Assembly (NCBI GenBank): GCA_964650515.1
Contig: CAZYUB010000012.1
Coordinates: 1,944-65,943, forward strand
Origin: an uncultured Planctomycetia bacterium
Lineage (GTDB): Bacteria > Omnitrophota > Gorgyraeia > Pluralincolimonadales > Pluralincolimonadaceae
Length of the DNA: 64,000 nucleotides
Reading direction: 5' to 3'
Notes under the pieces: generated by a model
Databases searched by the model: none
What the model was told of the DNA's origin: nothing
What the model saw: only the letters and a program-made list of their open reading frames with translations
Position numbers and translations under genes: made by a program
Shown: piece by piece, positions 7,941-64,000 of the stretch
Numbering within the stretch: the stretch's first letter is position 1
Layout: each line of letters starts with the position of its first letter

Positions 7941-7955
7941 AAAAAGGAGTCGGAG

Positions 7956-8041: not shown

Positions 8042-8087
8042 AAAAACCCCATATACCAGTTGTATACCCACAAAATACGGGGTTTTT
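8042..8087 (+). terminator. Stem-loop with 9-bp stem AAAAACCCC/GGGGTTTTT and a large 28-nt loop, T-rich 3' side; possible terminator or structured RNA element
   Basis: Perfect complementarity between 8042-8050 and 8079-8087. The loop is unusually large for an intrinsic terminator. Confidence 0.35.
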
Positions 8088-8121
8088 GTCGACGGGGAAC
8101 ACTACATATAGTATTTTTTGC

Positions 8122-8150
8122 TTGACAAGCTACTAGGGCTTGACTATACT
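8122..8150 (+). promoter_or_regulatory. Sigma70-like promoter (TTGACA-N17-TATACT) upstream of nrdJ
   Basis: Hexamers at 8122-8127 and 8145-8150, 26 nt upstream of the nrdJ ATG. Confidence 0.45.
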
Positions 8151-8176
8151 TTGGGTTGGGAAAGGGGGATTCAGAC

Positions 8177-18137: not shown

Positions 18138-18216
18138 CATTTCCTCGGCATTTCCTTGTTTTAAACCCTCCTATTTGGTAAAATACAGTTAAATTCACCC
18201 CTACTGGAGGATGCAG

Positions 18217-36106: not shown

Positions 36107-39100
36107 AGGGCGCGTGCTCCGCGACAGTCCGAGCACAGCCCTTTTTATCGCGAAGACCAGGCGTGACAGGGCCATCGCGGCCAGTATTCCCGCTAATATG
36201 ATCGATGTCAGGAAGAGGGAGTCCCTGTTATGGGAGCGCCTGAAAAGCATCAGCAGGGTCTCCGCCTCTTCGGCTTTTGATATGAGCACTTCCGGGGCAA
36301 GCCGAAGCTCCTCGAGGTCCTGTTTCGCCTTCACGGATATCTTCTCGAGGTCAGCGTAGTAACGCCTTCCGGACTTCAACCCGGCTATCTCGGCATCGAG
36401 GCGGGAAATATACCTCTTCAATGCGGCTATCCTTGCGTTATATTCGTCGTTGCCGGAATATATGGGCATGAACAATCCGATCCTCCTGACGGAGCCGTTG
36501 GCGGCCAGGTCCGCTACGATGTCCTTCAGGACAAAATTCCGCGGGTTTTTCAGCTTCTCCCTGTCGAACCATACCTGCATATTCTTGAGCAGTTTGCGGC
36601 TCATCCTTTCGGTCTCGTCGAGGTTCTCGTTGAACAGCCTCTTATACGCCATCTTTATGATATAGTTCGTCCACCACGACGACTGGGCCCTCTGGTAGTT
36701 GGTCTTCTGCCTCATGAGGAATTTCCCGTACCTGCCCGTCAGGTAGACGTTGACCGCCTCATTGAACTCGACCGCGGAATCCTTCTCGGGCTGCAGGCCG
36801 ATTATCTCTCGGTATGATGACGATACGTAATCCATATGCGATACGATATCCGCCATGACGGAAGGGGGGATGTTCTCGAAGGTCATCAACAGCGGCCACA
36901 GGAATTCAAGGGAGTCCGCGACCTTTTCGTCGTGCGACCTTATCTCGGCCATCCTTGAAGCTATAATGGCGTCGTTCTTGACTACGCGGCTGTTCGAGAG
37001 GAATTTGTGCAGGAAATCATCCGCGGACCGGGACCCTTTGAACGCTCGCGGGTTCCGGTAAATGCTCAACAGCCTGAAAGTGACGGAATCCATCTTTTCC
37101 TGCCATTTCTGCAGGTCATCGAAGGTCTTTGCGGCCATGAGGCCGCCGAGGTCATTGTCCTTTACTGACTTCAATATCCTGAAGAAGGCGCCAAGGTCTT
37201 TCTCGGGCAGGCCGAGGTCGTACGCCCTCTGCAGGTGGTACCATATGATGTTGACGATAATATCATTGTCGCTCACCTTCGGCACCGCGGCGAAACCGCT
37301 GTCCTTGAGGCCGTAGATATCCGTTATGACGCCGATGTCGTTAGCGTTCACGCCTTTTATCTTCCCGGACATCATCTCGAGCTCCTTCGGGAAATAGGCG
37401 CCGGCCGCGTATTTATAGATATCCTGTATCGGCTTCAGGTACCCGTGCCGCAGCTCATAGAACGTGAGCTTCTTCTTCATGGCGAAGACCGCCATCCATT
37501 CGGCGTTGCCCTGCTTCAGCAGCTCGAGGTCGGGATATTCCCGCGCCGCGGACCTTATAGAACGCCTCAGCTGCATCGCCCTTATGATATCCGGCTCCGT
37601 GACCGCGACCCCGAGGTTGCTAAGTATGCTTATGCCCGTCTGCAGCGTCGTATAATGCAGGACCCTGCCGTCGGTTATGCGTATGCCGGTCTTCTCCTCG
37701 ACCTCGTCCCTGATGCCGGATTCGATGCCTTCGGGTATCCTGGCAGGCCAGAACTCGTTTATCTGGGCGAGGAAAGCGGCCTTTTCAACGTCTCGGTGGT
37801 CCTTGAAGGCGAGGGAGTTAATCGCTATCTTTTCTGTTATGCCGGGCACGAAGAACGGGAGGTTCGGGTAATTCACGGGAAGCTCTTTCCAGAAATCCTT
37901 GAGCACCGACGCGAGCCTTTGCAGCTCCTCCGCGCCGAGCTCACGCCCGAAATCGAGCTTGAAATCCTCCCTGAGCCGGGCGAGGGTCATATAGGCGTTG
38001 AACCTCTTTATGGCCGGTGCCTCATTCTCGACGGTGTCCACGATGACCCTCAGCACGCGCCCGCCGTCTTTTTCGGTCCTCGGGTCGCGGCTCAGTTTTC
38101 GTTTGAGTATCTGTAGACGGAACGCGTTCTCGTATTCGAAGCCGGCGGGGAGGGGGAGGTCCTCGTTGAACCAGCCGTTTATCGCGGCGAATACCGGCGA
38201 GTAGTATTTGAAGTAGCCGCCGATCCCGTCCCAGCCCATGGACGCCCTGTTCTTTTCATATTCGAGCATCAGGTAGCCGCTTATGTTCCACCATGGTATC
38301 CTGCCGTATCCCGATGACATTCCAGCGCCGTAGAATTCCATGAATTCGGAAGCGAGGGCTTTCGGGCCGGCTTTTATGGAGTTCGCCTCAGCCTCGATAA
38401 CGAGTTTTGCGAGGAATTCGTAGGCGATGTCGAGCTTCATCTTTTCAGGGGTCTGGTCCGCGAGTATGCGGACCTGGCTTTCGGCATATCCCATATCGCG
38501 GTAAGTGGCCTCTACAACGCCCGATACGAACCCGGCCGGAAGCTCGAGTTTTTGTTTGTGCCAGGCCTCAGACATCCTGAATTCGTCATCGAAATAATCG
38601 AACAGCTCGGCTATGCCGCTGAAACCGGCCTTGTAATATATCAGCGTAAGGTAGCCGCTCTTTTCCCACCACGGCTTCTCGCTCATTCCCGAGGAGACGC
38701 CCGTCTCGTATATCTGCATGAACTTCGAGGCGAACTCGGCCGGGTCTACATCTATGCGGTTTGCCTTCGCCTCAAGCATGAGGGAGGAGAGCCAGATGTA
38801 GCCGGTCATCTCTTTTCCCGCTTCCGATTGTTTCTCGATGCGCTTTTCAATCCTCGAGATAATGCCCGCGTTCTCGCGGGGGGAGAGGCGGGGGTCCTCG
38901 AATATGCCCTTTTGCCTGAGCTCGTTGTTGAACATTATCTCGTTTATGATCTTCTCGTCCAGGATTACGCCCTGCTTCTTCAGCCCGTCGGCCTCCTCAA
39001 GCTGTGGGCCGAGGTAATCCATGTAATCGTCCATGTTCCAGCCGTATCTTTCGGCCATGACGTAATAGGACACCGCGAGGTATTCGCCGATGCCTTTGGC

Positions 39101-42100
39101 CCTGATGCCGTCCTTGAGGCCGGGATATTTGTCGCCGACCCTTTCCCATATCCCGACAAGGTAGCCCCTGAGCTTATCGGCGGTCTCTTTTATCACGTAG
39201 TTCGAGGGCTTGCCTTCGTTACCGAGTGTCTGCCATGTGTCGAGCGCCATGCGGTAATCCGACATGATGCATATGAGCTTGATGTCGCTCCTTTCGTATT
39301 CGACCTTCTTGACACCTTTCTTCCTGTAATCATAGAGGAACCTGTCCCTGTTTACCTTATACATCTCGTTCGGGACGGAGGTCTTATACCACGCGTAATT
39401 CACATAATCGAAACCGAGGTATTCCATTACCTCTTCCGTGGACATGTTGTTCTTCATGCCGGTCACTATAAGGTATTCGAGTTTTCCCTGCTTGCCCGCG
39501 ACAACGGTCTCGACGATGCCGAGGATCGTGCCGTATGGGATCTGGGTGGCCGGGATTATCTTCAGCACCGGGATGTAGAAGGTGACCGTGCCGAGCAGCT
39601 GGAAAGCGTTCTTAGCGGGTTCCGGCACGAGCTGGAACGGCTTCAGCGGGACGGACGGGTATTTTTTGCGGAACTGCGGCATCTTGTCGTATTCGGCGAA
39701 GAACTTCCTGAGGTTCTCCTCGTTCACGTCAAGCCCGGAATAATACAGCGAGAGGATGCCCCTTTGGAGGTATTCGTAGCGCTTCCAGATGCCCCGTTTC
39801 CTGGCGAAATCCGCGTTCCAGTATTTCTTCGTCTCTTCCCACTTGAAGACCTCCGCGATATCCTTCATCGACATCCCCGTCTCGCGGCTCGTCTCGAACC
39901 AGAACTGCCCGGTAAGCGGGTCAAGCACGTTGAACCACGGGTATTCCTTGCCGTAACGCGCTATCATCCCGAGCCCTTCGGCCCTGTCGAGCGCCATTAT
40001 AGCCATTCCCGCTATGTTGAACTTCAGGGAAAGCGCGATCTTGGCCCCCGCGAGCGCGGTTGAGGCGAGCAGGCGCCGTTTTCCCATCTTGTCCGACGCG
40101 TCGAAAAAATTCCTGAAAGCGGTAAGGTCCCCGAGCTCCGGCTCCTCGAGAGGGGATACGGCCTCACGCACGACAGGGGGAACCGCGTCCACGGCCGAGG
40201 GCTTCAATATCGGTATTGCCACCGAAAGCTTCTCCTGCACCGGAAGCACTTCGGCAAGCAGTTTCGTCTTTCCCTCGCGCGACTTCAACACCGGGGCCAG
40301 CCTGCTGTCTACGACCTTATCCGGTATGTAAAACTCTATCTTCTTGAGGTCGGCGCGCATCTTGTCTAGCAGGACCTCTTCCTGCGCGGAATAGCTGAAC
40401 TTATCTCTTGATTCCGGCAGGACGAGTTTTATCATGTCGTGCTTGTTCTGGCTCGGAAGCCCCCTAAGGGCGGAGAACATTATGACAAGCAGAAGGGAAG
40501 CGGAAACTATTATATAGGCCTTTTTCAGCTTTTCGCGGGGCGTGAGGCTGCGCGGGTCCAGGTCCCTGACCTTGCCGATGGCCGCGATGGCATAGCGGCC
40601 GAACATCAGCGAGCCCGCCCACGGCAGGATCCCGAATATCCCGAACACGGTCATCGGCGCTATCCCCGTAATGATATAAATGGCCGCTATGGACGATATT
40701 ATCAAGCCCATCTTTTGGGCTTCCTCGATCTTTATGTCCCTGAACTCGTTTTTAGTTATCCTGCCTTCGAGCTCCATCAAGGAGAGGGTGCTCGAGGTCT
40801 TCCATTCGGGGACTTTGTTGGCCTTCTCGGATTTATATATCGAGTATGAAAGCAGGGGTTTTATGACGGTCAACTGCAGGGACGATACGGTCGTCTCTAT
40901 CGTCTGCAGGACACTGTCGAAGAACTGGTCCACGAGCTCTATAGCGAAGGCCCCCGGGCGGATCGGGCGCCCTTCGGCTCGGGACCTGCGGAATATGTAC
41001 CTTACGGGGTCTATGAACCTGTGCACGAATATGATCCCGAAGAACGAGAGCGCCAATGTCAGGATATAAGCGTTTGAATTGGTCGGCACTATCAGGATAA
41101 AGGGAAATATCCAAAGCATGCACATCAGCATGATAAAGCAGAACAGCATCGGGTCGGAAAGCAGCCTTCCGATCGCCCAGCTCAGGTGCCACTGGTGGTA
41201 ATATGTCAGCAGTTTCCTGTAGGAGATCAGCGTCCTGATCGCCTGGAAATCTCCGATAAGCCACCTGACGTCGCGTATGATGTATGTGACGAAATGGAGC
41301 TGGTCGCGTTCGCCGACCGCGACGGAGTTATTATAGAAATTCGCCGTATATTTTACTATTTCGTCCATCCCCGTTTCTTTCAGGTGATGGAATTTCCTGG
41401 CGAAGCGGTACTCGCCGGTGTTGATATCGAAATGGTGCAGCCATACATCCCCGGCCGCGTCCTTCTCCAGTTTTATGAACCTTGTCGTATCGGCAAGGTC
41501 TATGCGCAGCACGACGGCGCCGAACTTCTCGAGGACCCTGCTTACGATATACCTCCTCGCGCCGAGCAACCCCTCGCAGTTCCTGCTGAATATCGATTCC
41601 TGCCAGTCGTGCGAAAGGACTTTAGCGGGTGAAAGCGTCTCCGGCTTGAAGACCCTTTCGTAGTATACCTTTGTCCTCGTGAAGCCCTTCCCGAAGAAAG
41701 CGCGCTCCTTGCCGTAGATGCCCGAGACGACCTTCATGTTTATCTCGTTCTCTATGTCGCGCTCGTTCTTCATTATCTTCCAGTAGACGCTCTCCTTGGC
41801 CGCGCCGCCGAGGTAGGGGGGAGTTATGACGATGTGCGGCTGCGCTATGACTATATGGCTGTTGTCGGGATGCATCATTATGGCGAGCGCCTTCTCGAGC
41901 TCGCCAGGATAGAGCTCGTTCTTATCGTCCATGATGACGCAGAACTCCGAGATCCTCTCCTGGTCGATCTCGACATCTTCGCCGCGCAGTATTCGTTCCG
42001 CGGCCTCGTCAGGGGTATATTGTTTTATGCCGAGGGCCTTCACGAGGTCCGTCGACCATATCCTGCAAAGCAGCGGTTTGTTCCTGTTTTGCGTGAACTC

Positions 42101-43609
42101 AAAACCCTCATCGGTGAACAGGTACGGCTTCGCCTGCCCGGTGTTCATGAAATGCATCAGGTTGCCTATGCCGCCGACCTTTCCGGCGAACCCGCCGGCT
42201 TTTATCATGCCGAGTTTCGTGTTGTCGAACCATTCGCTCTTCGACCTGTTCATGTAAAGGAAATCGAGGTTAGGGTAGGAATATTCCGACGAGAATTCCC
42301 GCAGACGCTTGACCTCGTATTCTATTATCTTGTCGTTCTTCGTGTCGGACCAGAACGTCATCACGAGCAGGATGCGGTTGCCGAACGTCTCGAGGGTAGG
42401 CCTCAGCGCGTCTATCGTCTTCCTGAAATAAAATATAGCTATCTCTGCGTCGGATTCGTTGTCGCTCCTCTTGGCCGTTATATAGGATATCTTCAGGGGT
42501 TTCTCTTCGGTGTAGTTCGCGTTTATGTATTCTCCGAGCTCGGGCAGCATCTTGTGGCCAGGCACGCTGACCATAAGGCTTACTATGAACAGGGATATCT
42601 TATGCGAGGGCTGCCAGGATATGTAATAGGTGATGCCGAAGCAGAGGGCTATCCAGATGAAAGTGATGGGAGGCATGTGCGGCAGGCCCGGGAAGCCGTA
42701 GACGGTAAGCGTCGGGACAACGGCGACGAGCGAAGCAAAGAAAAGCCTGAAGGAACGCGTGAGGCCTTCATAGAGGCGCGCCTCGGGCCCTTTGACGAAC
42801 GGGGGAGGGATCAGCGTGTCCTTGTTCTTGCGCAGCTGGTCCATCAGCAGGACCGCTTTGCGGTAACGGCCAAAATCCCTCAGGTTCTTTACGGCGTCCT
42901 TATATTCGGGATAGTTATCGAGCTCCCTCGTGAATTTTCCGAGCAGGCTCAGCTCGTGGTCCCCGAGCCGGTGGCCTATGATCCTGCGGTAGAGCAGCTC
43001 CGGGGGCACGACAAGTTTTTCGGCAAGCGCGGTAACGGCCTCCTTGATCTTTGCCCCGTCGTTTGCCCTGACCGCTTCCTTGAGATCGGAGAAGATCTGC
43101 GAGTAATCGGTAAAATCGCTTATGCTGCTGGCTTTCCTTATGTCTTCCTCGAAGACGGACATGAAATCGTGCAGCAGTTTCGACTGCATCTCAAGGCGTT
43201 TCTGCCTGAGCGTAGAGCCGAGGGCGGCCTTGCGTTTTTCGAGGGAAGAGATCTCGCGAAGCACGGCGGCGTCCGTATTCCTGTCATCGGACTGGTCGTT
43301 TTCCACGGACCTGTAGAGGCGCTCGAGCCTCTTATCTATAGAGCGCGTCTCCCGCCCGTAGCTTCTGGCGAGCCATTTCGTATCGCGGTATATGATCCCG
43401 GCGAGGGCCTTCTTGACGATTATCTCGGACATCACGAAATTATGCTGTCCGGGGGTCGCGTACCTGAACCTGCCCCTCCTGAGGTGCCCGAACCTTTCGA
43501 GCAGGCGGGTAATGGAAAAAGGCCAGAGGTACCCGGGGCGCGGCAGCTCCTGCAGGAAATCCGTCAGCTGCTTCGATATCCTGGAGAGTTCGCTCCGGTC
43601 GTTCGGCAT
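36083..43609 (-). CDS. Giant (2508 aa) multi-pass membrane protein with an OpgH/MdoH-like GT2 glucosyltransferase domain and a ~1400-aa C-terminal soluble region with internal repeats
   Basis: Uninterrupted 7.5-kb ORF. TM clusters at aa ~290-350, 820-865, 965-1047 and 2462-2482. The GT2-like core at aa ~380-800 has a VIMDDKNE putative DxD and an OpgH-like block VLSHDWQESIF (cf. E. coli OpgH ILSHDFVEA; recalled, not aligned). The ATG abuts the ybaK-like TAA. Confidence 0.8.
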   Translation of the reverse strand: MPNDRSELSRISKQLTDFLQELPRPGYLWPFSITRLLERFGHLRRGRFRYATPGQHNFVMSEIIVKKALAGIIYRDTKWLARSYGRETRSIDKRLERLYRSVENDQSDDRNTDAAVLREISSLEKRKAALGSTLRQKRLEMQSKLLHDFMSVFEEDIRKASSISDFTDYSQIFSDLKEAVRANDGAKIKEAVTALAEKLVVPPELLYRRIIGHRLGDHELSLLGKFTRELDNYPEYKDAVKNLRDFGRYRKAVLLMDQLRKNKDTLIPPPFVKGPEARLYEGLTRSFRLFFASLVAVVPTLTVYGFPGLPHMPPITFIWIALCFGITYYISWQPSHKISLFIVSLMVSVPGHKMLPELGEYINANYTEEKPLKISYITAKRSDNESDAEIAIFYFRKTIDALRPTLETFGNRILLVMTFWSDTKNDKIIEYEVKRLREFSSEYSYPNLDFLYMNRSKSEWFDNTKLGMIKAGGFAGKVGGIGNLMHFMNTGQAKPYLFTDEGFEFTQNRNKPLLCRIWSTDLVKALGIKQYTPDEAAERILRGEDVEIDQERISEFCVIMDDKNELYPGELEKALAIMMHPDNSHIVIAQPHIVITPPYLGGAAKESVYWKIMKNERDIENEINMKVVSGIYGKERAFFGKGFTRTKVYYERVFKPETLSPAKVLSHDWQESIFSRNCEGLLGARRYIVSRVLEKFGAVVLRIDLADTTRFIKLEKDAAGDVWLHHFDINTGEYRFARKFHHLKETGMDEIVKYTANFYNNSVAVGERDQLHFVTYIIRDVRWLIGDFQAIRTLISYRKLLTYYHQWHLSWAIGRLLSDPMLFCFIMLMCMLWIFPFILIVPTNSNAYILTLALSFFGIIFVHRFIDPVRYIFRRSRAEGRPIRPGAFAIELVDQFFDSVLQTIETTVSSLQLTVIKPLLSYSIYKSEKANKVPEWKTSSTLSLMELEGRITKNEFRDIKIEEAQKMGLIISSIAAIYIITGIAPMTVFGIFGILPWAGSLMFGRYAIAAIGKVRDLDPRSLTPREKLKKAYIIVSASLLLVIMFSALRGLPSQNKHDMIKLVLPESRDKFSYSAQEEVLLDKMRADLKKIEFYIPDKVVDSRLAPVLKSREGKTKLLAEVLPVQEKLSVAIPILKPSAVDAVPPVVREAVSPLEEPELGDLTAFRNFFDASDKMGKRRLLASTALAGAKIALSLKFNIAGMAIMALDRAEGLGMIARYGKEYPWFNVLDPLTGQFWFETSRETGMSMKDIAEVFKWEETKKYWNADFARKRGIWKRYEYLQRGILSLYYSGLDVNEENLRKFFAEYDKMPQFRKKYPSVPLKPFQLVPEPAKNAFQLLGTVTFYIPVLKIIPATQIPYGTILGIVETVVAGKQGKLEYLIVTGMKNNMSTEEVMEYLGFDYVNYAWYKTSVPNEMYKVNRDRFLYDYRKKGVKKVEYERSDIKLICIMSDYRMALDTWQTLGNEGKPSNYVIKETADKLRGYLVGIWERVGDKYPGLKDGIRAKGIGEYLAVSYYVMAERYGWNMDDYMDYLGPQLEEADGLKKQGVILDEKIINEIMFNNELRQKGIFEDPRLSPRENAGIISRIEKRIEKQSEAGKEMTGYIWLSSLMLEAKANRIDVDPAEFASKFMQIYETGVSSGMSEKPWWEKSGYLTLIYYKAGFSGIAELFDYFDDEFRMSEAWHKQKLELPAGFVSGVVEATYRDMGYAESQVRILADQTPEKMKLDIAYEFLAKLVIEAEANSIKAGPKALASEFMEFYGAGMSSGYGRIPWWNISGYLMLEYEKNRASMGWDGIGGYFKYYSPVFAAINGWFNEDLPLPAGFEYENAFRLQILKRKLSRDPRTEKDGGRVLRVIVDTVENEAPAIKRFNAYMTLARLREDFKLDFGRELGAEELQRLASVLKDFWKELPVNYPNLPFFVPGITEKIAINSLAFKDHRDVEKAAFLAQINEFWPARIPEGIESGIRDEVEEKTGIRITDGRVLHYTTLQTGISILSNLGVAVTEPDIIRAMQLRRSIRSAAREYPDLELLKQGNAEWMAVFAMKKKLTFYELRHGYLKPIQDIYKYAAGAYFPKELEMMSGKIKGVNANDIGVITDIYGLKDSGFAAVPKVSDNDIIVNIIWYHLQRAYDLGLPEKDLGAFFRILKSVKDNDLGGLMAAKTFDDLQKWQEKMDSVTFRLLSIYRNPRAFKGSRSADDFLHKFLSNSRVVKNDAIIASRMAEIRSHDEKVADSLEFLWPLLMTFENIPPSVMADIVSHMDYVSSSYREIIGLQPEKDSAVEFNEAVNVYLTGRYGKFLMRQKTNYQRAQSSWWTNYIIKMAYKRLFNENLDETERMSRKLLKNMQVWFDREKLKNPRNFVLKDIVADLAANGSVRRIGLFMPIYSGNDEYNARIAALKRYISRLDAEIAGLKSGRRYYADLEKISVKAKQDLEELRLAPEVLISKAEEAETLLMLFRRSHNRDSLFLTSIILAGILAAMALSRLVFAIKRAVLGLSRSTRPSEPQIPV

Positions 43610-57186: not shown

Positions 57187-58353
57187 ATGAAGGTTGGTCG
57201 CAACGATCCGTGCCCCTGTGGAAGCGGGAAAAAATATAAGAAATGCTGTCTAATCAAGGATACAATGATTGTGAGCGATTTAAAGAATATCAGATTAGAA
57301 GAAGTAAAGGATCCAAAGGAAATCGAACGGATTAAAAAGGAGATTGAGATAAAACAAGGCCCAGAACCGCATATAAATTTAGTGCCCAGCATTATTTGGA
57401 AAGGCTACAGATGGCGCTCTATTTATAGTACATTACATGCGCGGAATTTACATGAAACATTTGATGAATTTATTCTTGTCAGGCTAAAAAGTCACTTTGG
57501 ACCAGAATGGAAGGCCGAGCAAGACAAGCTGCCACCGGAGAAGCAGCATATATTATTGAAATGGCTCCGGGCCTTAAATAAATTATCTGTTTCAAAAAAC
57601 GTCGTAAAGCATGGAGAGCATTTGTGGTCAGTTGAAGCCACAGGACCTGTAAGGGCGCTTAATCAGTTTGCCTACGATGTTTATTGCCTTGAATCGCAAA
57701 AGAAGCTCCCTGAATTTTTAATTAAAAAAATAAAGAATTATAACGAATTTCAAGGTGCTAGATATGAAATTGCAACAGCCGCAATAATGCTAAGGGCTGG
57801 TTATGAAATCGAATTTTTAGACGATAAACATTTGCAGGAAAAACATTGCGAATTTATAGCCAAGCACCGCATTAGCGGTATTTCATATGGCGTAGAAGCT
57901 AAAAGTCGCCGACGTAAAGGGGTAATGCATGAAGAGGGCGAATTCGATCCCTCTAGAGATGTGAAGGGAGATGTCCAGAATTTATTAAAAAAGGCAATTG
58001 CGCAGCGCCCCAAAGGAATGCCATTTATAATTTTCATTGATCTGAATCTCCCGCCTGAACCAAATGTTAAAATTGAGAATAGAAGATGGTTTGCCGACGT
58101 TAAGAATATTTTAGATGAGAGAGGCAAGTCCTCAGATATTAATCCCGACCCATTTAATGCGTTAATACTGACGAATTTTTCATATTATTATCAAGGAGAT
58201 GATGAAGTTGCCAGCGGTGGAGAATATCTTCAGATAATAGGTTTTTATCCAGAGAATAAAGTGTATAAAAATTATCCTGTGCAAGATATTCAGCCCCTCG
58301 AAGATATTAGAGGTTGTCTAGATAGATATAGCTATATACCTAAAGAAGTCTGA
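57187..58353 (+). CDS. SEC-C motif (zinc-binding) domain protein with a C-terminal region showing a PD-(D/E)XK-like signature (putative nuclease)
   Basis: 388 aa, AT-rich gene (visibly lower GC than the flanks). N-terminal GRNDPCPCGSGKKYKKCC. Candidate D...(E)xK: FLDD ... GVEAKSRR. GAGAGGAA ribosome-binding site. Confidence 0.65.
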   Translation: MKVGRNDPCPCGSGKKYKKCCLIKDTMIVSDLKNIRLEEVKDPKEIERIKKEIEIKQGPEPHINLVPSIIWKGYRWRSIYSTLHARNLHETFDEFILVRLKSHFGPEWKAEQDKLPPEKQHILLKWLRALNKLSVSKNVVKHGEHLWSVEATGPVRALNQFAYDVYCLESQKKLPEFLIKKIKNYNEFQGARYEIATAAIMLRAGYEIEFLDDKHLQEKHCEFIAKHRISGISYGVEAKSRRRKGVMHEEGEFDPSRDVKGDVQNLLKKAIAQRPKGMPFIIFIDLNLPPEPNVKIENRRWFADVKNILDERGKSSDINPDPFNALILTNFSYYYQGDDEVASGGEYLQIIGFYPENKVYKNYPVQDIQPLEDIRGCLDRYSYIPKEV

Positions 58354-58767
58354 TCATTGTTGGGAGGGGAGCCTTAGGTCGATTTCAACTCTTGCCACAT
58401 TATGAGCATTTTTGCTAGCCTGCCCCCCCATTAGTTGTACCACTTCTTAAGAGAGTCTAGCAGATACCCTCAAGAGCAAAGAAACGCCTCTTAAATCCCG
58501 CACTAGCCGTAAACAAAGAGGCTATCCCCTTGCGCCTTATTACTGGCGGTCGTGACGAGAGTCACCTCTCAAATCTATCAAGTTCAAAATAATACTTCTT
58601 TTCTAATAAAATATATCTTGACAAAACTAAATGCCAGCGCTAATCTATGAAAAGTAGTCGAAACGTTTCGAGCTTATCCAGTCGAAGTAACTAAACAATG
58701 GCTAACCTCTGGAAGTCCAAAGATGGCGTCGACTCATTCAAGCCTTAAAGAAAAAATCACAATCTAA

Positions 58768-58794
58768 AACGGCAATGATCATTGCCGTTTTTTG
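58768..58794. terminator. Perfectly palindromic hairpin AACGGCAATGATCATTGCCGTT flanked by A-run/T-run (bidirectional terminator-like)
   Basis: 11-bp perfect stem, then TTTTTT on the plus strand and TTTT on the minus strand. Confidence 0.65.
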
Positions 58795-60471
58795 TTCTTA
58801 TTACAGTTCACAAAAGTCAAATCAAGGTTCTTCCACTTGAAAAAAGATCCCCTGCTTTATCAAGTCGTAGCCTTCTTTTGGATATGCGCCATACTATATT
58901 TTAACCCCCGCATATTCGCGTTGCTCGTAGGCCCTGAAAATATTGCCGCAAAATTGACAATAGTATTTTTTGCGATCCTTCTTAATCTGTTCTGGTTTTA
59001 CGCATTTTATCATCTGGTAATAATAGTATTCTCCTACCTAAGAAATTCCAACCTGTATCGCGCGTCAAACATAGCTAACGCAACAGATAGTTCTCGCGTC
59101 GCTCTTTTATATGCGACATGCAACGACTTTAAGGAAGATGCGGTCTTATCTTGCCTCAGCCAGGATTATCCAAATGTCCATACGTTCATTCTGGATGACG
59201 GCGATGATGAAGCTTTCAAAATGAGAATAGATGAGTTTTGCCGTCACCATAAAGGCGAAGTAACTGTAATGCGCCGTGCTGGCAGGCAAGGCTTCAAGGC
59301 CGGCAACCTTAATAATTGCCTTAATGAAATAGACGGTTTCAAATACATCAGCGTTTCCGACGCGGACACCATATTGCCCGGGGATTACGTATCAAAGCTT
59401 CTGCCATATTTCTGTGACCCGAGGACAGCATTCGTCCAATCGAGGCAGGAGTTTAATCCGGCCCAGAGCTCTTCTTTTGCGCAGGGCCTCGGCTACCAGA
59501 TAGAGCTTCATTGCGACCATTATCTGAAGACGAAGAATCAATACGGATTTGTCATGTTCTACGGGCATGGCGCTTTGATGCGGACGGACGTATTAAAGGA
59601 AATAGGCGGTTTCCCCGAAGTGGCGACGGAGGACCTGGCATATTCAATGGAAATAAGGCGAAAGGGATATCACGGCGTTTACGCGCAGGATGTTACGTGC
59701 CTCGAGGAATTCCCGCCGACATTCCGGCAGTATCGCAAACGAAACGATAAATGGATAAAGGGTACGGCGGAGTGCCTGTTAAAGTATTTCCCGTCTTTTC
59801 TTAAGTGCAGTGGTATCAGCCGTGTCGAGAAGTTTGATGTATTCGTGTCCGCGCTAAGCCTTCTTCTAAGCCTTCCCTTTGTACTGCTTCTGCTATTGGT
59901 GGGTATCATGCTTCCATATTATTACTCGCATTTCCAGTTCCAGGGGCCGATGTTCAAGATGCCGCTTTCTTATAATGGGACTTTCCTTGGCGCCTTGACG
60001 GGGATCTCGAGCAACCTCTTTTGGAGATGGGACTTTTTCCTGATGTTGCTGTTGACGCTCGCCGCGCCCGTTTTACCCGCTATATTGCAGGCAATCCGCG
60101 ACCCGGTCAAAAAGATCCGCTTCATAATAATGTATACATTCATATTTTACGCTACGCAGGTAAGCTCGGCGTGGGCGCTCGTCGCGTACCTGATAAGCAA
60201 GAAGGCCGAATTTCCGGTTACGGGGGATGCTTCCGAATGGCGCGGAGTTAACAAGCCTGTTTTTATCGTCGAATGCGCGGGCGCTGCGCTATTTTTGTCG
60301 ATAAGTCTTATTTCGAGGAATATATGGTTCTTGTCATTCGCCGCGGGTATTGCAGCAGGAGTATTGATTCTAAAACGCGGCTTCGAAAATAAATTGGCAA
60401 GGATATCCGCAGTTATTCCCATAATAATCCTGGCGGTAATAGTGGTTTTTATCGGCAGGAAGCTCCAATAA
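58792..60471 (+). CDS. Family-2 glycosyltransferase, membrane-integrated (2 N-terminal + C-terminal TM; cellulose-synthase/OpgH-like processive type)
   Basis: DDGDD and DADT Asp motifs and a QYRKRNDKW (QxxRW-like) block. No in-frame ATG near the 5' end; start is TTG 58792 (inside the hairpin) or TTG 58846. Confidence 0.75.
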   Translation: MFLLQFTKVKSRFFHLKKDPLLYQVVAFFWICAILYFNPRIFALLVGPENIAAKLTIVFFAILLNLFWFYAFYHLVIIVFSYLRNSNLYRASNIANATDSSRVALLYATCNDFKEDAVLSCLSQDYPNVHTFILDDGDDEAFKMRIDEFCRHHKGEVTVMRRAGRQGFKAGNLNNCLNEIDGFKYISVSDADTILPGDYVSKLLPYFCDPRTAFVQSRQEFNPAQSSSFAQGLGYQIELHCDHYLKTKNQYGFVMFYGHGALMRTDVLKEIGGFPEVATEDLAYSMEIRRKGYHGVYAQDVTCLEEFPPTFRQYRKRNDKWIKGTAECLLKYFPSFLKCSGISRVEKFDVFVSALSLLLSLPFVLLLLLVGIMLPYYYSHFQFQGPMFKMPLSYNGTFLGALTGISSNLFWRWDFFLMLLLTLAAPVLPAILQAIRDPVKKIRFIIMYTFIFYATQVSSAWALVAYLISKKAEFPVTGDASEWRGVNKPVFIVECAGAALFLSISLISRNIWFLSFAAGIAAGVLILKRGFENKLARISAVIPIIILAVIVVFIGRKLQ

Positions 60472-60487
60472 CAAAAGGGAGGCTGAA

Positions 60488-63400
60488 GTGAAAAGGAAGA
60501 TACTGATAGTCGCCGCGATGTTAATGATGACGACCGCGTTCCTGGCGGGTTTCGAATTGACCGATGAAGTTATTGCTTTCCGCGCTCTCGAGGAAGGCAA
60601 CTATCAGGGCGCGCTCGAGATATATATCAAGAATAATAATAATTCCGGGGCAGGTATGGCGTACCTCGGTTTGAAACGTTTCGATGACGCTAAGGAAAAA
60701 TTTGAAAAGGCGGGCGATCTGTCCGGCATCGGCCTTGCCTATTGCGGAAAACACCTTTATGACGAAGCTATAAGGAACTTCGAACAGAAGAGGGATAACT
60801 CCGGCATCGGCCTTGCCTATTGCGGCAAGAGGGATTTTAACGCCGCAAGGGGGTATTTTAGGCAGGCGAACGACTATTCCGGCATGGGTCTGGCGGCTCT
60901 CGGAGAAAATAAAACGGATGAAGCGAGGGAATGGTTTACCAAAGTAGGGGATAAGGGCGGCCTCGGGCTTGTTCTTTTGGCCGAGAAGAAATATGATGAA
61001 GCCCTGAAGAGCTTTACCGCCATAAAAGACAACTCCGGCGCAGGACACGCATATTGCGGAAAGAAAGATTACAGCTCGGCCTTGACATATTTTAAGAAAG
61101 CCAACGACCTTTCCGGCCTTAGCCTCGCCTATTCAGGCAAGAATATGTATACCGAGGCGATAAGATACGCTGTCGAGGCGAACGATTATTCCGCGCTCGG
61201 ACATGCCTATCTGGGCAAGCACGACTATAAGGAAGCGCTGGATAGCTTCACGAAGGCCAATGACCTTTCCGGTATCGGTTTTGTCTATTGCAAACAAAAG
61301 GACTTCGCCAAGGCAGCCCAATACGCGAAAGCCGCAAACGACCTTTCTTTGCAGGGGCAGATATATCTTGGGGCAGGCGACTATAAATCAGCGGAAGACT
61401 GTTTTACGGCAGCTAACGACCTTTCCGGCCTCGGTTTGGTCAACTTAAAGAGCAAAAAATACGATAAAGCGAAGGAATATTTCCAAAAGGCCAACGACAT
61501 GTCCGGCCTCGGTTTTCTTTACGGCGAGATAGGCGATTACTCCAAATCGGAAGAGTGCTTTACCAAAGCCAACGACATGGCCGGTCTCGGTAGGATGGCG
61601 CTTAAAAGAAAGCAGTTCAACGAAGCGATCGCGTATTTCAAGAAGTCCAACGACCTCGATGGCCTCGGCGACCTTTATTGGCAGTTGAGGAGTTTCGATA
61701 AGTCGATAGAGTGTTTCAAGGCGGTAGGCGATGACATCAAGGTCGTCCAGGCCTTGCGCGAGAAGAAGAGAAGGGATCCCATAACAAACAAGGTCAGCTA
61801 TTACGGATCCGAGGATGCCATCGCATACGCGAAAGCCAAGATAGAAGAAGGAAAATTCGTCGCGCCTTTGCATATCGAGATCGGGCACATATACAGCTCG
61901 CGTAACGACTTTGAGAACGCCTTGAAGGAGTACGAAGCCGCCTTGAACAGCGATACTTACTATGCGGCCGACGCGCTTTTTTGGATAGGCAAAACCCGCT
62001 ATCAACAGAAAAACTATCAGCTCGCGAAAGAAGTTTTCAGCAACCTCGTCGCGAAATACCCCTATCATCGCCTATCGTATGAGGCGCGCGGCGCTGTAAA
62101 ATATTTGGAAAGGTCTGGTAAAGCATCGGCTGGTTTACCAGCGAATAATATATGCGGACCTTATGCCTTAAAACTGCTTCTCTGTAACTACGGGATAGAA
62201 GCCGCGACAGATGAGATCGCGAAAGCCGCCGGGACGGATAAAGAAGGCACTACCATGCTCGGTCTCATCCAAGCCGCGAAGCTGAGCGGTTTGGAGATAT
62301 CGGCATTCAAAACGGATTCCGGCAAACTCAGGGGGTACGCCGGCAAGGCTGTCCTGTTCATCAATAATTCCCACTACGTGTTTTTGAAAGAGGTTAGAGC
62401 GGCGGGAGTGCTGGTTACCGATAACATAGCTGACTCGTACATGACTTTCAGCGCCCTGGACATGTGCTGGCAGGGACAGATCATCGCCATAAAGACAGAC
62501 CCAGGCATAAAGGAGTTCGCTTACGACGAGCTGGCGAGCATTAAAGGAGGAAACCGCAGGGCTTCGGAGGGCGGTACCACTAAGAACGATCCTGGCTTAT
62601 ATCCGAACGGGTCATTAACACTTGATTACGGTAAAATAGGCCCGATCGTACCGGGCGATTATTTGATGATGAATAATCTTTCGGATTCGGGAACCGGGCA
62701 CAATCCCCAGCCTGATGGCGGGATGGGGATGACGCGTATGGGTACCGGCGAGAACGCGCTCGGAGGACAGCAATGTGATGCCGTATTTGACCCAATAGCA
62801 ATAACGGGCGGCCAGGTTATCATACCAAAGGAAGACATATTTATCCCTTGCAGGGGCCGGAAACACGGCATAAACCTGAGCCTTAAAAGGACCTATTCAT
62901 CAAGCAGCGAAGTGGACGGGAAGATAGGTTTTGGCTGGGCGCTTGCGCACGATGTTAAACTGCGGGTTATACCGGCGGAAGGCGACGACCCGCAGCATGT
63001 TATCGTGACGACTCCCGACGGGACTATATTCAGCTATGAGTATGACGGAGAAGGCTTTTACTATATGCCTGAATGCGACGGCTCATACGTCAAAAAAAAT
63101 GAGGATGGATCATATTATTGGATGCGCCAGACCGTAATGTATGGATTACAAAAGTATTATTTTGAAGTATATGTAACGGAGACCACAACTCATCGTATCA
63201 AAAAAATAGAAGATCTTAACAGTAATTACCTTATTTATATATATGCGGGGGCTAATCTCACTAAGATATATGATAACTACAGCAGGTTTTTAAGTTTTAC
63301 GTATCTCGACGGAAGGATAGATACCGTAACCGGCGGGAAAAGCACAGTCACGGTGACATATAGCTACGATTACGACGAGAACGGCAACCTTACCCTGGTT

Positions 63401-64000
63401 AACGGTCCTGAAAATTATTCGGAAAGATACGAATACGAAGACGCAAATAATATACACAATGTCACTGCATATGTTGACGCCGAATACAACAGGACGGAAT
63501 ACACCTATGAGCAGGACCCATCAGGCTTAAGTGATGTCTGCGTTGAAGTAAGGGACGCGCTAGATAATCCCGCTACTTACGACTACTTGTTCGAGATAGG
63601 TGTCACGACGGTTGTGGATGCGCGCGGACGTACCAGCGTTTATGAATACGAAAAGGGCAAAATTAACAAAATCACCAACTCGAACGGCGGCATAACATAC
63701 TATTCGTTTGACGACACTTATATGCGCAATTCGATAACCGATGAGCATAACAGAGGATGCGGGTGGTTGAATAAATATCATTATGGCTTGGTGGAAACAT
63801 TGGACAACGAAGAAGGCTATAGCGCATATTTCGGTTATAATTCATTCGCTTACATAGAATGGATATCCGACGTTAAGAACAGGGCCTGGACATACGAATA
63901 CGATGATAACGGTAATTTAAGATACAGACGCGCGCCCGCTCCTAACAACCAGGGAACGTCGACGGTTGAAAAGCAGTACGGTTTAGGCGGTTGTCTTACG
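60488..64000 (+). CDS. Large secreted protein, 3' partial (>1171 aa): signal peptide, ~14 tandem 26-aa repeats, TPR-like region, C39-like papain-fold Cys peptidase domain, YD/RHS repeats
   Basis: I translated the frame codon by codon from GTG 60488 (GGGAGG ribosome-binding site 7 nt upstream) to 64000 with no stop. It is absent from the track because there is no stop in the window. Signal peptide MKRKILIVAAMLMMTTAFLAG. Peptidase motifs CGPYAL (Cys556) and NSHYVFL (His629). YD repeats such as VTYSYDYDENGNLTLV and WTYEYDDNGNLRYRR. Confidence 0.8.
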   Translation, partial: MKRKILIVAAMLMMTTAFLAGFELTDEVIAFRALEEGNYQGALEIYIKNNNNSGAGMAYLGLKRFDDAKEKFEKAGDLSGIGLAYCGKHLYDEAIRNFEQKRDNSGIGLAYCGKRDFNAARGYFRQANDYSGMGLAALGENKTDEAREWFTKVGDKGGLGLVLLAEKKYDEALKSFTAIKDNSGAGHAYCGKKDYSSALTYFKKANDLSGLSLAYSGKNMYTEAIRYAVEANDYSALGHAYLGKHDYKEALDSFTKANDLSGIGFVYCKQKDFAKAAQYAKAANDLSLQGQIYLGAGDYKSAEDCFTAANDLSGLGLVNLKSKKYDKAKEYFQKANDMSGLGFLYGEIGDYSKSEECFTKANDMAGLGRMALKRKQFNEAIAYFKKSNDLDGLGDLYWQLRSFDKSIECFKAVGDDIKVVQALREKKRRDPITNKVSYYGSEDAIAYAKAKIEEGKFVAPLHIEIGHIYSSRNDFENALKEYEAALNSDTYYAADALFWIGKTRYQQKNYQLAKEVFSNLVAKYPYHRLSYEARGAVKYLERSGKASAGLPANNICGPYALKLLLCNYGIEAATDEIAKAAGTDKEGTTMLGLIQAAKLSGLEISAFKTDSGKLRGYAGKAVLFINNSHYVFLKEVRAAGVLVTDNIADSYMTFSALDMCWQGQIIAIKTDPGIKEFAYDELASIKGGNRRASEGGTTKNDPGLYPNGSLTLDYGKIGPIVPGDYLMMNNLSDSGTGHNPQPDGGMGMTRMGTGENALGGQQCDAVFDPIAITGGQVIIPKEDIFIPCRGRKHGINLSLKRTYSSSSEVDGKIGFGWALAHDVKLRVIPAEGDDPQHVIVTTPDGTIFSYEYDGEGFYYMPECDGSYVKKNEDGSYYWMRQTVMYGLQKYYFEVYVTETTTHRIKKIEDLNSNYLIYIYAGANLTKIYDNYSRFLSFTYLDGRIDTVTGGKSTVTVTYSYDYDENGNLTLVNGPENYSERYEYEDANNIHNVTAYVDAEYNRTEYTYEQDPSGLSDVCVEVRDALDNPATYDYLFEIGVTTVVDARGRTSVYEYEKGKINKITNSNGGITYYSFDDTYMRNSITDEHNRGCGWLNKYHYGLVETLDNEEGYSAYFGYNSFAYIEWISDVKNRAWTYEYDDNGNLRYRRAPAPNNQGTSTVEKQYGLGGCLT
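60590..61730 (+). repeat. Tandem in-frame 78-bp (26-aa) repeat array, ~14 units, consensus ANDLSGLGLAYxGKxDYxEAxxxFxK
   Basis: Regular 26-residue periodicity in the translated protein. DNA-level near-identical copies, e.g. TCCGGCATCGGCCTTGCCTATTGCGG at 60722 and 60800, 78 nt apart. Confidence 0.75.

Follow-up and report, generated by a model that had tools for sequence, protein, structure and literature searches.

The last 3.5 kb of the window, by which we mean the whole 64,000-nucleotide stretch of DNA analysed here, encodes the beginning of a protein in which a helical repeat array, a C39 cysteine peptidase and RHS repeats follow one another, and the question that this locus raises is what such a protein is and what its peptidase would act upon. 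The initial annotation had set the start of the reading frame at GTG 60488, behind the sequence GGGAGG, and had counted 1171 open codons; retranslation of 60488-64000 on the forward strand found zero stops in these codons up to the window end, and relatives start at the equivalent place, with (M/V)K(R/K)K and then a hydrophobic stretch. GTG 60488 is the first possible start 3' of an in-frame TAG at 60440-60442. The frame is not a chance one because a near-identical architecture recurs in independent assemblies at 89, 84, 54 and 37 % identity, and it is a real gene of an Omnitrophota-type bacterium. Full-length relatives comprise ~2,050-2,500 aa. The features of the locus are collected in Table 1.

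Table 1. Features of the GT2 and TPR-C39-RHS genes at the end of the window
Feature	Position	Strand	Basis
Terminator-like hairpin, 11-bp stem and T-run; closes upstream gene, suggested start of GT2-RHS unit	58766..58791	+	
GT2 glycosyltransferase of processive-synthase type, with membrane segments; start approximate	58792..60471	+	Pfam
Shine-Dalgarno sequence GGGAGG	60477..60482	+	5 nt upstream of GTG 60488
TPR-C39-RHS gene, putative toxin, 5' 3.5 kb (1171 codons), open at window end	60488..64000	+	Translation, relatives
Sec-type N terminus, MKRK then ILIVAAMLMMTTAFLAG; signal peptide or signal anchor	60488..60559	+	Sequence reading
Fourteen 26-aa shortened-TPR repeats, aa 51-414; putative alpha-solenoid stalk	60638..61729	+	In-register units, TPR_2 matches, AF2
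Canonical TPR helices linking stalk to peptidase, aa ~441-535	61808..62092	+	Pfam, AF2
Peptidase C39 domain, aa 545-670	62120..62497	+	Pfam, fold, catalytic residues
Catalytic residues C556, H629 and D645	62153-62155, 62372-62374, 62420-62422	+	C39 domain
Leader-like double-glycine motif IKEFAYDELASIKGG, aa 674-688	62507..62551	+	Recognition-rule match, conservation, AF2
Predicted scissile bond G688/N689	between 62551 and 62552	+	Motif position
Linker, aa 689-767, with clade-invariant block EGGxTKxDPGxxPNG; predicted disordered	62552..62788	+	Alignment, AF2
DUF6531, aa 768-848, preceding RHS repeats	62789..63031	+	Pfam PF20148
First RHS/YD repeats of cage, aa ~849-1171, cut by window end	63032..64000	+	PF05593, TIGR01643

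The N terminus and helical repeats

Judged by its sequence the N terminus is of Sec type, either a signal peptide or a signal anchor, and the MKRK n-region and the 17-residue hydrophobic stretch are kept in all relatives. Behind it the initial annotation had read about fourteen 26-aa repeats together with TPR-like helices, a description that was confirmed and could be refined: the fourteen units are exactly in register (consensus DxSGLGxAYLGxxxYxxAxxxFxKAN), and they are shortened TPRs, not a separate type of repeat. The Pfam TPR models (TPR_2) cover them only at model positions 4-27 of 34, the 26-aa units fall short of the 34-residue helix-turn-helix unit that defines a TPR, and Tandem Repeats Finder detected no DNA-level tandem array. 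In the AF2 model of the array (pLDDT 86-94) each unit has two helices of 10-11 residues and folds as a TPR-like helical hairpin, the fold matches being long TPR superhelices. Canonical 34-aa TPRs follow (Pfam matches to TPR_8, TPR_12, TPR_16 and TPR_6 at aa 461-527), with longer AF2 helices than those of the 26-aa array. The model NF033920 (PA2778-family C39 peptidase) matched only the TPR-like aa 274-337, at 23.9 bits against a full-length cut-off of 150, so that the protein does not belong to that family. The catalytic Cys stands at different offsets in the relatives, which implies ~14 to 32 repeats and hence an array of variable length, which would serve as a stalk or tether.

The RHS cage, its variable tips and the neighbouring GT2 gene

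The YD/RHS repeats that had been read from aa ~845 onwards were recovered in the HMM search, which matched both the C39 peptidase and the RHS/YD repeats: matches to RHS_repeat (35 bits, cut-off 22) and TIGR01643 (28 bits, cut-off 15.8) extend from aa ~848 up to the end of the window, and YD motifs stand at aa 848, 960, 981 and 1134. By analogy with RhsA, the preceding DUF6531 (E 8e-9; 36 bits, cut-off 24) probably plugs the cage on its N-terminal side or forms its entry. Further downstream the initial annotation had expected an RHS core, then a variable toxin with its immunity gene, and the complete relatives (P0002/L001/L003, L008 and L049) bear this out with a core, a divergent putative toxin tip and a candidate immunity gene, the C terminus of the protein studied here lying beyond the window. 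Relatives have 7-12 Pfam-detected RHS repeats and a TEN_YD-shell match. In P0002/L001/L003 the core (RFITPDPLGM...DFYGL) is followed by a tip of ~150 aa, a 125-aa ORF overlaps the stop and there are orphan core-plus-tip cassettes; L008 and L049 have the same layout with different tips, and in L008 transposases adjoin the locus. The core, which has the form PDPLGM...YGL in full-length relatives, is present in relatives of falling similarity, namely P0002/L003 (84 %), L049 (partner GT2 65 %), L008 (37 %, junction segment) and L052 (partner GT2 44 %). At least six unrelated tips stand behind the same core (those of P0002, L008 and L049, an L008 orphan, a Tlde1-like orphan and an HExxH orphan), the small ORF after each tip in the relatives is a candidate immunity gene, and the orphan cassettes keep a core remnant of ~130 aa. 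The core, the divergent tips, the small downstream ORFs and the orphan cassettes of the relatives therefore identify the protein, on sequence grounds, as an RHS polymorphic toxin, with core and tip seen in relatives and falling beyond the window end here. The cage of the full-length relatives would end in the RHS core autoprotease and enclose the variable toxin tip.

The GT2 gene, the product of which matches Pfam Glyco_tranf_2_3 and Glyco_trans_2_3, ends 16 nt before the RHS start, with no terminator-like site between the two. As a boundary of the unit the upstream hairpin is only suggestive, because the count of terminator-like sites in the region is at chance level; nucleotide homology to L002 starts at 58595. 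A GT2 gene lies directly upstream of the TPR-C39-RHS gene in six relatives (L002, L003, L008, L049, L050 and L052; GT2 identity 84 % to 44 %), and throughout the Omnitrophota-type clade a processive-type GT2 always precedes the RHS gene as a conserved operon partner; the other neighbours examined are housekeeping or envelope genes. The protein might alternatively be a surface scaffold or adhesin for polysaccharide production and not primarily a toxin, the TPR solenoid working with the co-transcribed GT2 synthase and the RHS shell being structural or adhesive as in teneurins, whose YD shells are non-toxic. The TPR parts of BcsC, PgaA and PelB work with polysaccharide synthases, and generic TPR matches of the present protein include BcsC and PrsT; furthermore, the GT2 gene is better conserved than the RHS gene, and its best NCBIfam matches, all far under their cut-offs, are CelA, PgaC and MdoH. 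We nevertheless consider a scaffold very unlikely, given that the core autoprotease motif, hypervariable tips, small ORFs and orphans (one of them Tlde1-like) are hallmarks of polymorphic toxins and that Hydrogenedentota-type relatives have the same C39-GG-RHS logic without a GT2 gene. A role as a glycan tether would in any case be compatible with a polymorphic toxin and not an alternative to it.

The C39 peptidase and its adjoining double-glycine motif

The papain-fold C39 peptidase of the initial annotation, with its Cys in CGPYAL (C556) and its His in SHYVFL (H629), was upheld both by Pfam (Peptidase_C39, PF03412, aa 554-670, E 7e-19, 68.4 bits against a gathering cut-off of 22) and by AF2 and Foldseek. 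The best PDB sequence matches of the domain are ComA PEP, PCAT1 and LahT. Its AF2 model (pLDDT >90) is papain-like, the top Foldseek match being 6mpz, that is, LahT with leader peptide, and the top matches LahT, PCAT1 and ComA having TM-scores (target-length normalised) of 0.69-0.76. Across 20 sequences, most of them only 23-31 % identical to that of the window, Cys and His do not vary and Asp is kept in at least 90 %. With Cys, His and Asp conserved and genuine double-glycine proteases as the nearest solved relatives, sequence and model indicate that the peptidase is catalytically intact.

A candidate substrate lies close at hand, as the motif FAYDELASIKGG sits 18 residues past the C39 domain and reads F(-12)xxxE(-8)L(-7)xxI(-4)KGG (F677, E681, L682, I685, G687 and G688). 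The published rule for C39 leaders is L(-12)xxxE(-8)L(-7)...GG, with groove contacts V-4/L-7/L-12, and the motif of the window obeys the published rules at -12, -8, -7, -4, -2 and -1. Conservation was again counted over sequences mostly 23-31 % identical to that of the window: position -1 is G/A and -2 is G in 20/20, -12 is L/F/M/I in 20/20, -7 is L/M/I in 18/20 and -3 is K/R in 17/20. The strict motif was present in 13 of 21 RHS-linked C39 clusters as against 7 of 54 others (Fisher p = 5e-5; background 8 % per sequence window), and 11 of the 13 motif-bearing clusters have a spacing of 17-20 residues between the end of the C39 domain and the end of the GG. It counts against a cis substrate that the GG site is replaced by LxGKYxCGN in one subfamily (P0011, P0045, P0093, P0127 and P0148) and by IIAG in L052. 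In the AF2 model the segment is docked confidently as a leader-like helix, helical from -10 to -5 and extended at -3/-2 with a pLDDT of ~90 that drops to ~35-50 past the GG, and this predicted conformation, helix then extended, is the same as that of the LahT-bound leader.

The explanation that we favour, and hold to be reasonably probable on the strength of sequence and models, is that the protein is a Sec-exported RHS polymorphic toxin whose own C39 domain frees the cage from the stalk by a cut after G688. After export the hydrophobic groove of the C39 domain would take up the amphipathic helix of the adjoining motif, and the peptidase would cut after G688 either in cis or between neighbouring molecules, whereby a plug, cage and toxin particle of ~1,360 aa would be freed from a stalk and protease of ~670 aa. 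We infer the occurrence, site and timing of this cleavage, as well as an antibacterial target; the timing may be redox-gated, as in the C39 toxin StbD.

It could be argued that the domain holds its partner without cutting it. C39-like domains that bind without cleavage are known; like those of RTX transporters, the C39 domain of the window might be a clamp or chaperone that holds the linker helix and so joins stalk and cage until delivery. The 3zua and HlyB structures are indeed among the fold matches of the model, the confidence of AF2 speaks for docking and not for chemistry, and the canonical position of the oxyanion Gln is not obviously kept: no Gln is evident at the usual spacing of ~6 residues ahead of the Cys, and at -2 from the catalytic Cys all five sequences of the junction alignment have Asn (N554), where distant relatives commonly have Q. 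We find such a binding module quite unlikely in view of the retention of Cys, His and Asp over the divergence described above, whereas C39-like domains lack the catalytic Cys, and in view of the small residues at -1 and -2, which the narrow active site needs and the invariable retention of which is hard to explain unless a bond is cut there.

The choice of substrate is a separate matter. Polymorphic toxins have C39 toxin domains (Tox-PL-C39; StbD/Cpe1), StbD cleaves itself and also cuts targets, and Foldseek matched the model to structures of StbD and Cpe1 as well (8ssk and 9l5u, E 2e-6 to 6e-6). The C39 domain could thus be the effector itself, or a processor of other substrates such as target-cell proteins or separate GG-leader peptides, in which case the adjoining motif would be at most a secondary self-release site or an auto-inhibitory pseudo-substrate. 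This we regard as unlikely: the domain is placed outside the cage, on its N-terminal side, and not at the toxin-tip position, no immunity-like ORF stands beside it, the GT2 gene ending just before the RHS start, and a search of the window found no second C39 domain. Moreover, its likeness to the leader peptidases PCAT, ComA and LahT is closer than that to C39 toxins, and the simplest reading of a conserved leader-like helix that keeps a fixed spacing is that it is the substrate.

Relation to known systems

Self-release by a cut after G688 can be set against several known systems. Bacillus subtilis WapA is a Sec-dependent RHS toxin (Koskiniemi et al., 2013, as reviewed in PMC4436062) and, in that review's account, starts with a signal peptide and not with a T6SS adaptor, to which the Sec-type N terminus of the present protein would correspond; an N-terminal surface-association module and RHS repeats follow, and its variable C-terminal toxin and adjoining immunity gene are matched by the tips and candidate immunity genes of the relatives. 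WapA has neither a C39 peptidase nor a 26-aa TPR-like array and belongs to a monoderm, whereas the family described here is known from sequences in MAGs of Omnitrophota and Hydrogenedentota. The T6SS Rhs effectors (P. protegens RhsA, P. laumondii Rhs1, Tse5 and Tse15) have an RHS cage that is closed by a plug at the N terminus and by an aspartyl autoprotease core at the C terminus, DUF6531 before the repeats and an encapsulated tip, and a cut parts their N-terminal delivery module from plug and cage. Assignment to this group was rejected, as the 1171 aa gave no Pfam match to PAAR, prePAAR or a VgrG-binding module; likewise, no T6SS or TPS feature that might point to a route across the outer membrane was found, which counts against the favoured explanation, and T6SS genes were not among the neighbours examined. 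The N-terminal cut of RhsA is cage-intrinsic and its mechanism 'as yet unknown', whereas here that place is taken by a separate, recognisable C39 domain with its canonical GG site; the proposed cut would mirror that of the T6SS effectors but would be made by a dedicated protease.

The PCAT/AMS peptidases (ComA PEP, PCAT1 and LahT150) provide the best sequence and fold matches and the same Cys/His/Asp triad, and the adjoining motif fits their leader rules (GG; hydrophobic -4, -7 and -12; Glu -8). Identity as a PCAT/AMS transporter was rejected, there being no ABC transmembrane or nucleotide-binding domains fused to the C39 domain; NCBIfam transporter models match the peptidase segment only (17-30 bits against cut-offs of 524-853). 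Here the domain lies behind a Sec signal and is therefore predicted to be extracytoplasmic, and protease and presumed substrate belong to one polypeptide, the substrate on the C-terminal side, so that the 'cargo' would be a protein of ~1,360 aa and not a peptide. A cysteine protease may be inactive in an oxidising periplasm, a consideration that counts against cleavage.

The C39 domain of StbD-CT cleaves itself in cis after a linker Gly-Gly, C183A or GG-to-S blocking the reaction, and the C39 toxins StbD and Cpe1 cut GyrB/ParE at Gly-Gly (Nhan et al., 2026, bioRxiv 10.64898/2026.05.07.723447). In both cases a C39 domain is part of a polymorphic toxin, and the redox-dependent linker cut of StbD/Cpe1 releases a module from its tether; theirs, however, is a C-terminal toxin with its own immunity protein, whereas here the domain is internal and N-proximal and stands ahead of an RHS cage, the toxin of which would be a different one. 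The position of the GG, N-terminal to the protease in StbD and C-terminal to it here, counts against the parallel. Zhang et al. (2012; PMC3482391) list HINT, ZU5, caspase-like, PrsW, papain-like and OTU domains as releasing peptidases of polymorphic toxins, and record C39 with RHS repeats only in the role of toxin tip at the C terminus (Tox-PL-C39). The concept of a built-in peptidase that releases the toxin module is the same, whereas C39 as a releasing peptidase ahead of RHS and a cis double-glycine site are not described there. The Tox-PL-C39 class was itself rejected, the C39 domain lying upstream of DUF6531/RHS and the tips of the relatives being unrelated to C39. In the parts of their account concerned with giant proteins of Omnitrophota, West-Roberts et al. 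(2023, bioRxiv 10.1101/2023.11.21.568195) suggest that an N-terminal C39 domain may cleave its own polypeptide, and compare a predicted beta-helix tubule with RHS structures. The phylum is the same, and there too the C39 domain of a very large secreted protein lies close to the signal sequence; the proteins treated in those parts are 'Archaeovorin' and dockerin-type, not RHS toxins, and no cleavage motif is mentioned there.

The initial annotation had taken the architecture to be undescribed, and for the literature searched this stands, since no paper linking a double-glycine site to RHS was found and Zhang et al. (2012) have C39 on RHS proteins only as a toxin tip; yet the architecture is not unique to this sequence, recurring in ~23 other 50 %-identity protein clusters. 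It is widespread in metagenomes, with family members from Omnitrophota and Hydrogenedentota MAGs, and such proteins bear the NCBI name 'cysteine peptidase family C39 domain-containing protein'. What is new in this family is a C39 peptidase with what would be its own recognition motif directly downstream, ahead of an RHS cage.

Reading frame and modular organization of the window protein

The initial annotation had claimed an open frame that was missing from the ORF track because it has no stop within the window, and translation of 60488-64000 (+) indeed gave 1171 codons with no stop. The GTG at 60488 is the first start codon possible past an in-frame TAG (60440-60442); a ribosome-binding GGGAGG at 60477-60482 lies 5 nt before it, and the preceding glycosyltransferase gene (GT2) ends at 60471, 16 bases before it. 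In independent relatives the protein opens at this point too, with (M/V)K(R/K)K plus a hydrophobic segment. The ORF, its GTG start and the reason for its absence from the track are confirmed. The features of the product are listed in the table. A lipoprotein was rejected, as the window protein has no lipobox. An assembly chimera was likewise rejected, since the identical domain order was found in more than 10 independent assemblies. No further RHS or C39 pieces occur elsewhere in the window.

Features of the protein encoded by 60488-64000, with residue numbers and the basis of each assignment
Feature	Residues	Strand	Evidence or sequence
Sec-type N-terminus, cleaved signal or anchor	1-24	+	MKRK then ILIVAAMLMMTTAFLAG
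Fourteen 26-residue repeats, exactly in register	51-414	+	consensus DxSGLGxAYLGxxxYxxAxxxFxKAN
Canonical, longer TPR helices	about 441-535	+	Pfam, AlphaFold2
Peptidase_C39	545-670	+	Pfam E 7e-19
Leader-like motif	674-688	+	IKEFAYDELASIKGG
Linker with clade-invariant block EGGxTKxDPGxxPNG	689-767	+	
DUF6531	768-848	+	Pfam
RHS/YD repeats	849 to window end	+	Pfam/NCBIfam matches

The domains named by the initial annotation are correct, with the refinement that the 26-residue repeats and the TPR-like helices, which it had described separately, form one continuous TPR-type solenoid, the first 14 units of which are a shortened TPR variant. The 26-residue repeats gave strong Pfam TPR matches, yet these cover only positions 4-27 of the 34 in the model. 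AlphaFold2 predicted the array as an unbroken solenoid (pLDDT 86-94) with two helices of 10-11 residues per unit, the nearest folds being long TPR superhelices such as those of Ctr9, Ski3 and OGT. Tandem Repeats Finder detected no DNA-level tandem repeat in the region encoding the array, which argues that the array is old and diverged and has not undergone recent expansion. The catalytic cysteine lies at position 556 in the window protein and at 608, 738, 999, 1007 and 1030 in relatives; counted in 26-residue units, the first three are shifted by 2, 7 and 17 units (the 17-unit case plus 1 residue), 1007 by 17 units plus 9 residues and 1030 by 18 units plus 6 residues. To judge from these offsets, the repeats act as a spacer of variable length, and the family contributes a compact 26-residue TPR variant whose copy number shifts by whole units.

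The C39 peptidase and its adjoining double-glycine motif

The closest solved relatives of the C39 domain by sequence are the leader-cleaving domains of ComA, PCAT1 and LahT. In our main structure model, built on a 20-sequence alignment, the domain was predicted with pLDDT >90 and its best fold match was 6MPZ, the LahT protease crystallized with a leader peptide; in a shallow model built on four sequences this part was of low confidence. All 20 sequences share C556 and H629, and D645 is kept in at least 90 % of them. As most of these sequences are only 23-31 % identical to the window protein, such conservation argues against a degenerate ‘C39-like’ binding domain.

At 18 residues past the end of the C39 domain, the window protein carries the segment F677-AYD-E681-L682-AS-I685-K-G687-G688. 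The published ComA recognition rule is Leu(-12)-X3-Glu(-8)-Leu(-7) ahead of GG, GA or GS, and in the LahT complex the leader is extended at -1 to -3 and helical, over two turns, from -4 to -11, so that -4, -7 and -12 come to lie in a hydrophobic groove. The window motif fits every position of these rules. Among the 20 sequences, position -1 is G in 18 and A in two, -2 is always G, -3 is K or R in 17, -4 is aliphatic in 13, -7 is L, M or I in 18, and -12 is L, F, M or I in all. AlphaFold predicted the motif (pLDDT ~90) as a helix from -10 to -5 with -3 and -2 extended, and pLDDT falls to about 35-50 right after the GG. Residue conservation and spacing thus show, at the level of sequence, an apparently intact leader peptidase adjoining a conserved, correctly spaced leader-like site, both of them between the presumed tether module and the RHS cage. 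Outside the cytoplasm, redox conditions may govern whether a cysteine protease is active.

Leader-like GG motifs also occur soon after the N-terminal hydrophobic segment of a few more distant relatives, such as P0006 (aa 97-103, MRQIHGG) and P0020 (aa 73-79, LRSLKGG), hinting at a second C39 cut near the N-terminus. Such an N-terminal motif is absent from the window protein and is not general in the wider family.

Relatives, toxin tips and the glycosyltransferase partner

A word-indexed protein search returned four proteins with the same domain order (89, 84, 54 and 37 % identity), their source names, where given, being Candidatus Omnitrophota or Omnitrophica. The 84 % identical relative, P0002, is 2,051 aa long when correctly started (locus L003), and its long RHS array is followed by the RHS core RFITPDPLGMADGPNLYLYVRNDPVNRTDFYGL and a roughly 150-residue tip; the stop codon of the gene is overlapped by an ORF of 125 aa. 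Downstream of the same gene in locus L001 lie two cassettes, each opening with the same roughly 130-residue core remnant (VEYIYDGLTPLIERD...PDPLGQ...YGL) and each followed by its own small ORF, with one tip resembling Tlde1/L,D-transpeptidases and the other HExxH metallopeptidases; a third copy starts near position 9360. Locus L008, which is 37 % identical over the junction segment, holds a complete gene of 2,452 aa with a hydrophobic tip, then a 130-aa membrane ORF and, further downstream, an orphan core and tip with a 147-aa ORF, followed by IS200- and IS110-type transposases. Locus L049 has another, different tip with a 113-aa membrane ORF. Pfam and NCBIfam scans, which covered the P0002, L008 and L008-orphan tips and the small downstream ORFs tested, returned no family. 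In its predicted gene content, this arrangement matches the usual make-up of rhs polymorphic-toxin loci.

The tips of P0002 and of the distantly related C39-RHS protein P0069 share a terminal motif, HYH...HRPWQGG (BLASTP E 2e-4 for the pair). With no family match for the P0002 tip or for any of the other tips scanned, this suggests a shared tip family not previously described.

Genes of this TPR-C39-RHS type are found at contig ends unusually often (the window end, L002, L004, L005, L050 and L051): in four relatives the gene is truncated there, and the L051 contig stops right after GT2. A probable cause is that assemblies break at repeated rhs core and orphan sequences. The last 48 bases of the window had no exact match in the genome and metagenome contigs scanned. 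At L049, the toxin locus is flanked by a Transglut_core and TPR protein of >1,100 aa (17754-19632), another combination of papain fold and TPR, and on its other side by a 2,406-aa CarboxypepD_reg/glycoside-hydrolase protein (1538-8758).

The gene immediately before the toxin gene encodes a membrane-embedded GT2, both in the window and in L002, L003, L008, L049, L050 and L052, with GT2 identities from 100 % down to 44 % and differing surrounding genes. The best matches of GT2 are CelA, PgaC and MdoH, all well under family cut-offs. Between L008 and the window, GT2 is better conserved than the toxin (56 versus 37 % identity), and nucleotide homology between the window and L002 begins at the GT2 gene. 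A strong hairpin with an 11-bp stem and a T-run (58766-58791) precedes GT2, and there is no terminator-like site between GT2 and the toxin gene. No GT2 partner was found beside the C39-RHS genes of Hydrogenedentota-type relatives. The pairing might provide the solenoid with a glycan tether, serve to glycosylate the toxin, or act in self-protection.

GC content is 0.52-0.59 across the window and drops to 0.44-0.48 over its last 8 kb. In-frame third-position GC declines only from about 0.53-0.71 to about 0.40-0.55 in the RHS part, and we do not take this to mean that the gene is mosaic. The low-GC stretch (56-64 kb) may be an acquired island. A gene for a SEC-C-motif protein before the hairpin (57187-58353, +) has a GC content of 0.38, versus 0.52-0.59 for the window. 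The window encodes a second giant protein, a 2,508-aa ORF (36083-43609, -) with several hydrophobic segments and an ‘LSHDWQES’ stretch, for which there was no Pfam match at E<=1e-5. Some bins seem to carry doubtful taxonomic labels, such as ‘Planctomycetia’ or, for a contig of 2.9 kb, ‘Woesebacteria’.

An exhaustive profile search with the C39-to-DUF6531 segment against 1.84 billion cluster representatives gave 2,957 matches, only one of which covered the whole junction. About 23 of the best 150 of these matches are long proteins of the same layout, i.e. a Sec-type N-terminus, helical region, C39, GG motif and Gly/Pro/Cys-rich linker followed by a DUF6531-like start, RHS repeats, the core DPLGMxDGPN and variable tips. 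Where named, their sources are Candidatus Hydrogenedentota or ‘bacterium’, and their database labels are ‘cysteine peptidase family C39 domain-containing protein’ or ‘RHS repeat-associated protein’. A strict motif, [LIVMFAT]xx[LIVMFAT]xGG after the C39 domain, was present in 13 of 21 RHS-linked clusters versus seven of 54 others (Fisher's exact p 5e-5), against a background of 8 % per stretch of that length; the seven include two truncated RHS-type proteins and two archaeal-looking surface proteins. The GG ends 17-20 residues past the C39 domain in 11 of the 13 motif-bearing RHS-linked clusters. Exceptions are one subfamily with LxGKYxCGN in place of the GG site and L052, which has IIAG and retains the -4/-7/-12 pattern.

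Six archaeal-looking beta-helix surface proteins (P0055, P0060, P0099, P0063, P0015 and P0038) run from C39 through a leader-like motif to a C-terminal hydrophobic tail, and motifs among proteins of this kind include DEMKNLVGG and EEMQSIKG. In the Hydrogenedentota-type locus L047, the C39-RHS gene sits between two pieces of an LPG_synthase_TM gene (8674-9564 and 16760-17278), as if inserted into it; another large RHS-like gene lies just upstream, as does a YD-shell fragment.

A proposed release mechanism and comparison with known systems

We infer that C39 would cut after G688, in cis or between neighbouring molecules, and that this would free a particle of plug, cage and toxin, ~1,360 residues long if the 2,051-aa relative is taken as a guide, leaving a stalk and protease of ~670 residues. 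Three precedents make self-release plausible. In the CdiA-like toxin StbD, C39 cuts its own linker in cis after Gly157-Gly158, under reducing conditions only, and the cut is blocked by C183A or Gly-to-Ser substitutions (bioRxiv 10.64898/2026.05.07.723447). T6SS Rhs effectors are cut between delivery module and plug, by a mechanism described as unknown by the authors concerned. Giant Omnitrophota proteins carry a C39 domain near the signal peptide, for which cleavage of its own polypeptide has been proposed (bioRxiv 10.1101/2023.11.21.568195).

Were the protein a delivery device, the solenoid could hold the toxin particle on the producer surface or on a self-made glycan, and release could follow only once the cysteine protease switches on, as it might on contact or where the micro-environment is reducing. 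C39 with its own leader-like GG may be a widespread, unrecognized self-release switch of surface proteins in bacteria and archaea. In ultra-small, possibly host-dependent Omnitrophota, such a device could serve to attack host or prey cells. We consider it unlikely that all of this holds together, namely that GT2, solenoid, C39 with its cis GG site and RHS cage form one delivery device, that the C39-GG pair is a general release switch, and that hosts or prey are attacked.

By its testable features the window protein is both an RHS-repeat protein and a C39 peptidase, and is not a PCAT transporter. Three further assignments were rejected: a T6SS Rhs effector, as there is no PAAR in the window protein; Tox-PL-C39, in which C39 is the tip, unlike here; and the PA2778 family, for which the score was far under the cut-off. 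The closest way of working is that of WapA-type Sec-dependent RHS toxins, combined here with a putative releasing peptidase inside the protein, as Zhang et al. 2012 use the term (PMC3482391). No paper in the literature searched (subscription journals lay outside it) ties a double-glycine site or an N-proximal C39 to RHS proteins; the parts are familiar, but that literature describes neither their arrangement nor the cis site, the 26-residue TPR variant or the GT2 pairing.

Few containers of bacterial toxins are as common as RHS cages. How non-T6SS cages are detached and delivered from the producer is poorly understood, and even in T6SS Rhs effectors the chemistry behind the N-terminal cut has yet to be worked out. 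At the position of that cut, this family has a defined protease (C556) and site (G687-G688), both open to mutation, so that the release step lends itself to direct tests in vitro. The family also reveals the strict conservation of a gene pair, glycosyltransferase and toxin, in a phylum for which there is little but metagenomic data, and would widen the role of C39 double-glycine peptidases from the leaders of small peptides at ABC transporters to a 2,000-residue protein with a predicted cis cut outside the cytoplasm.
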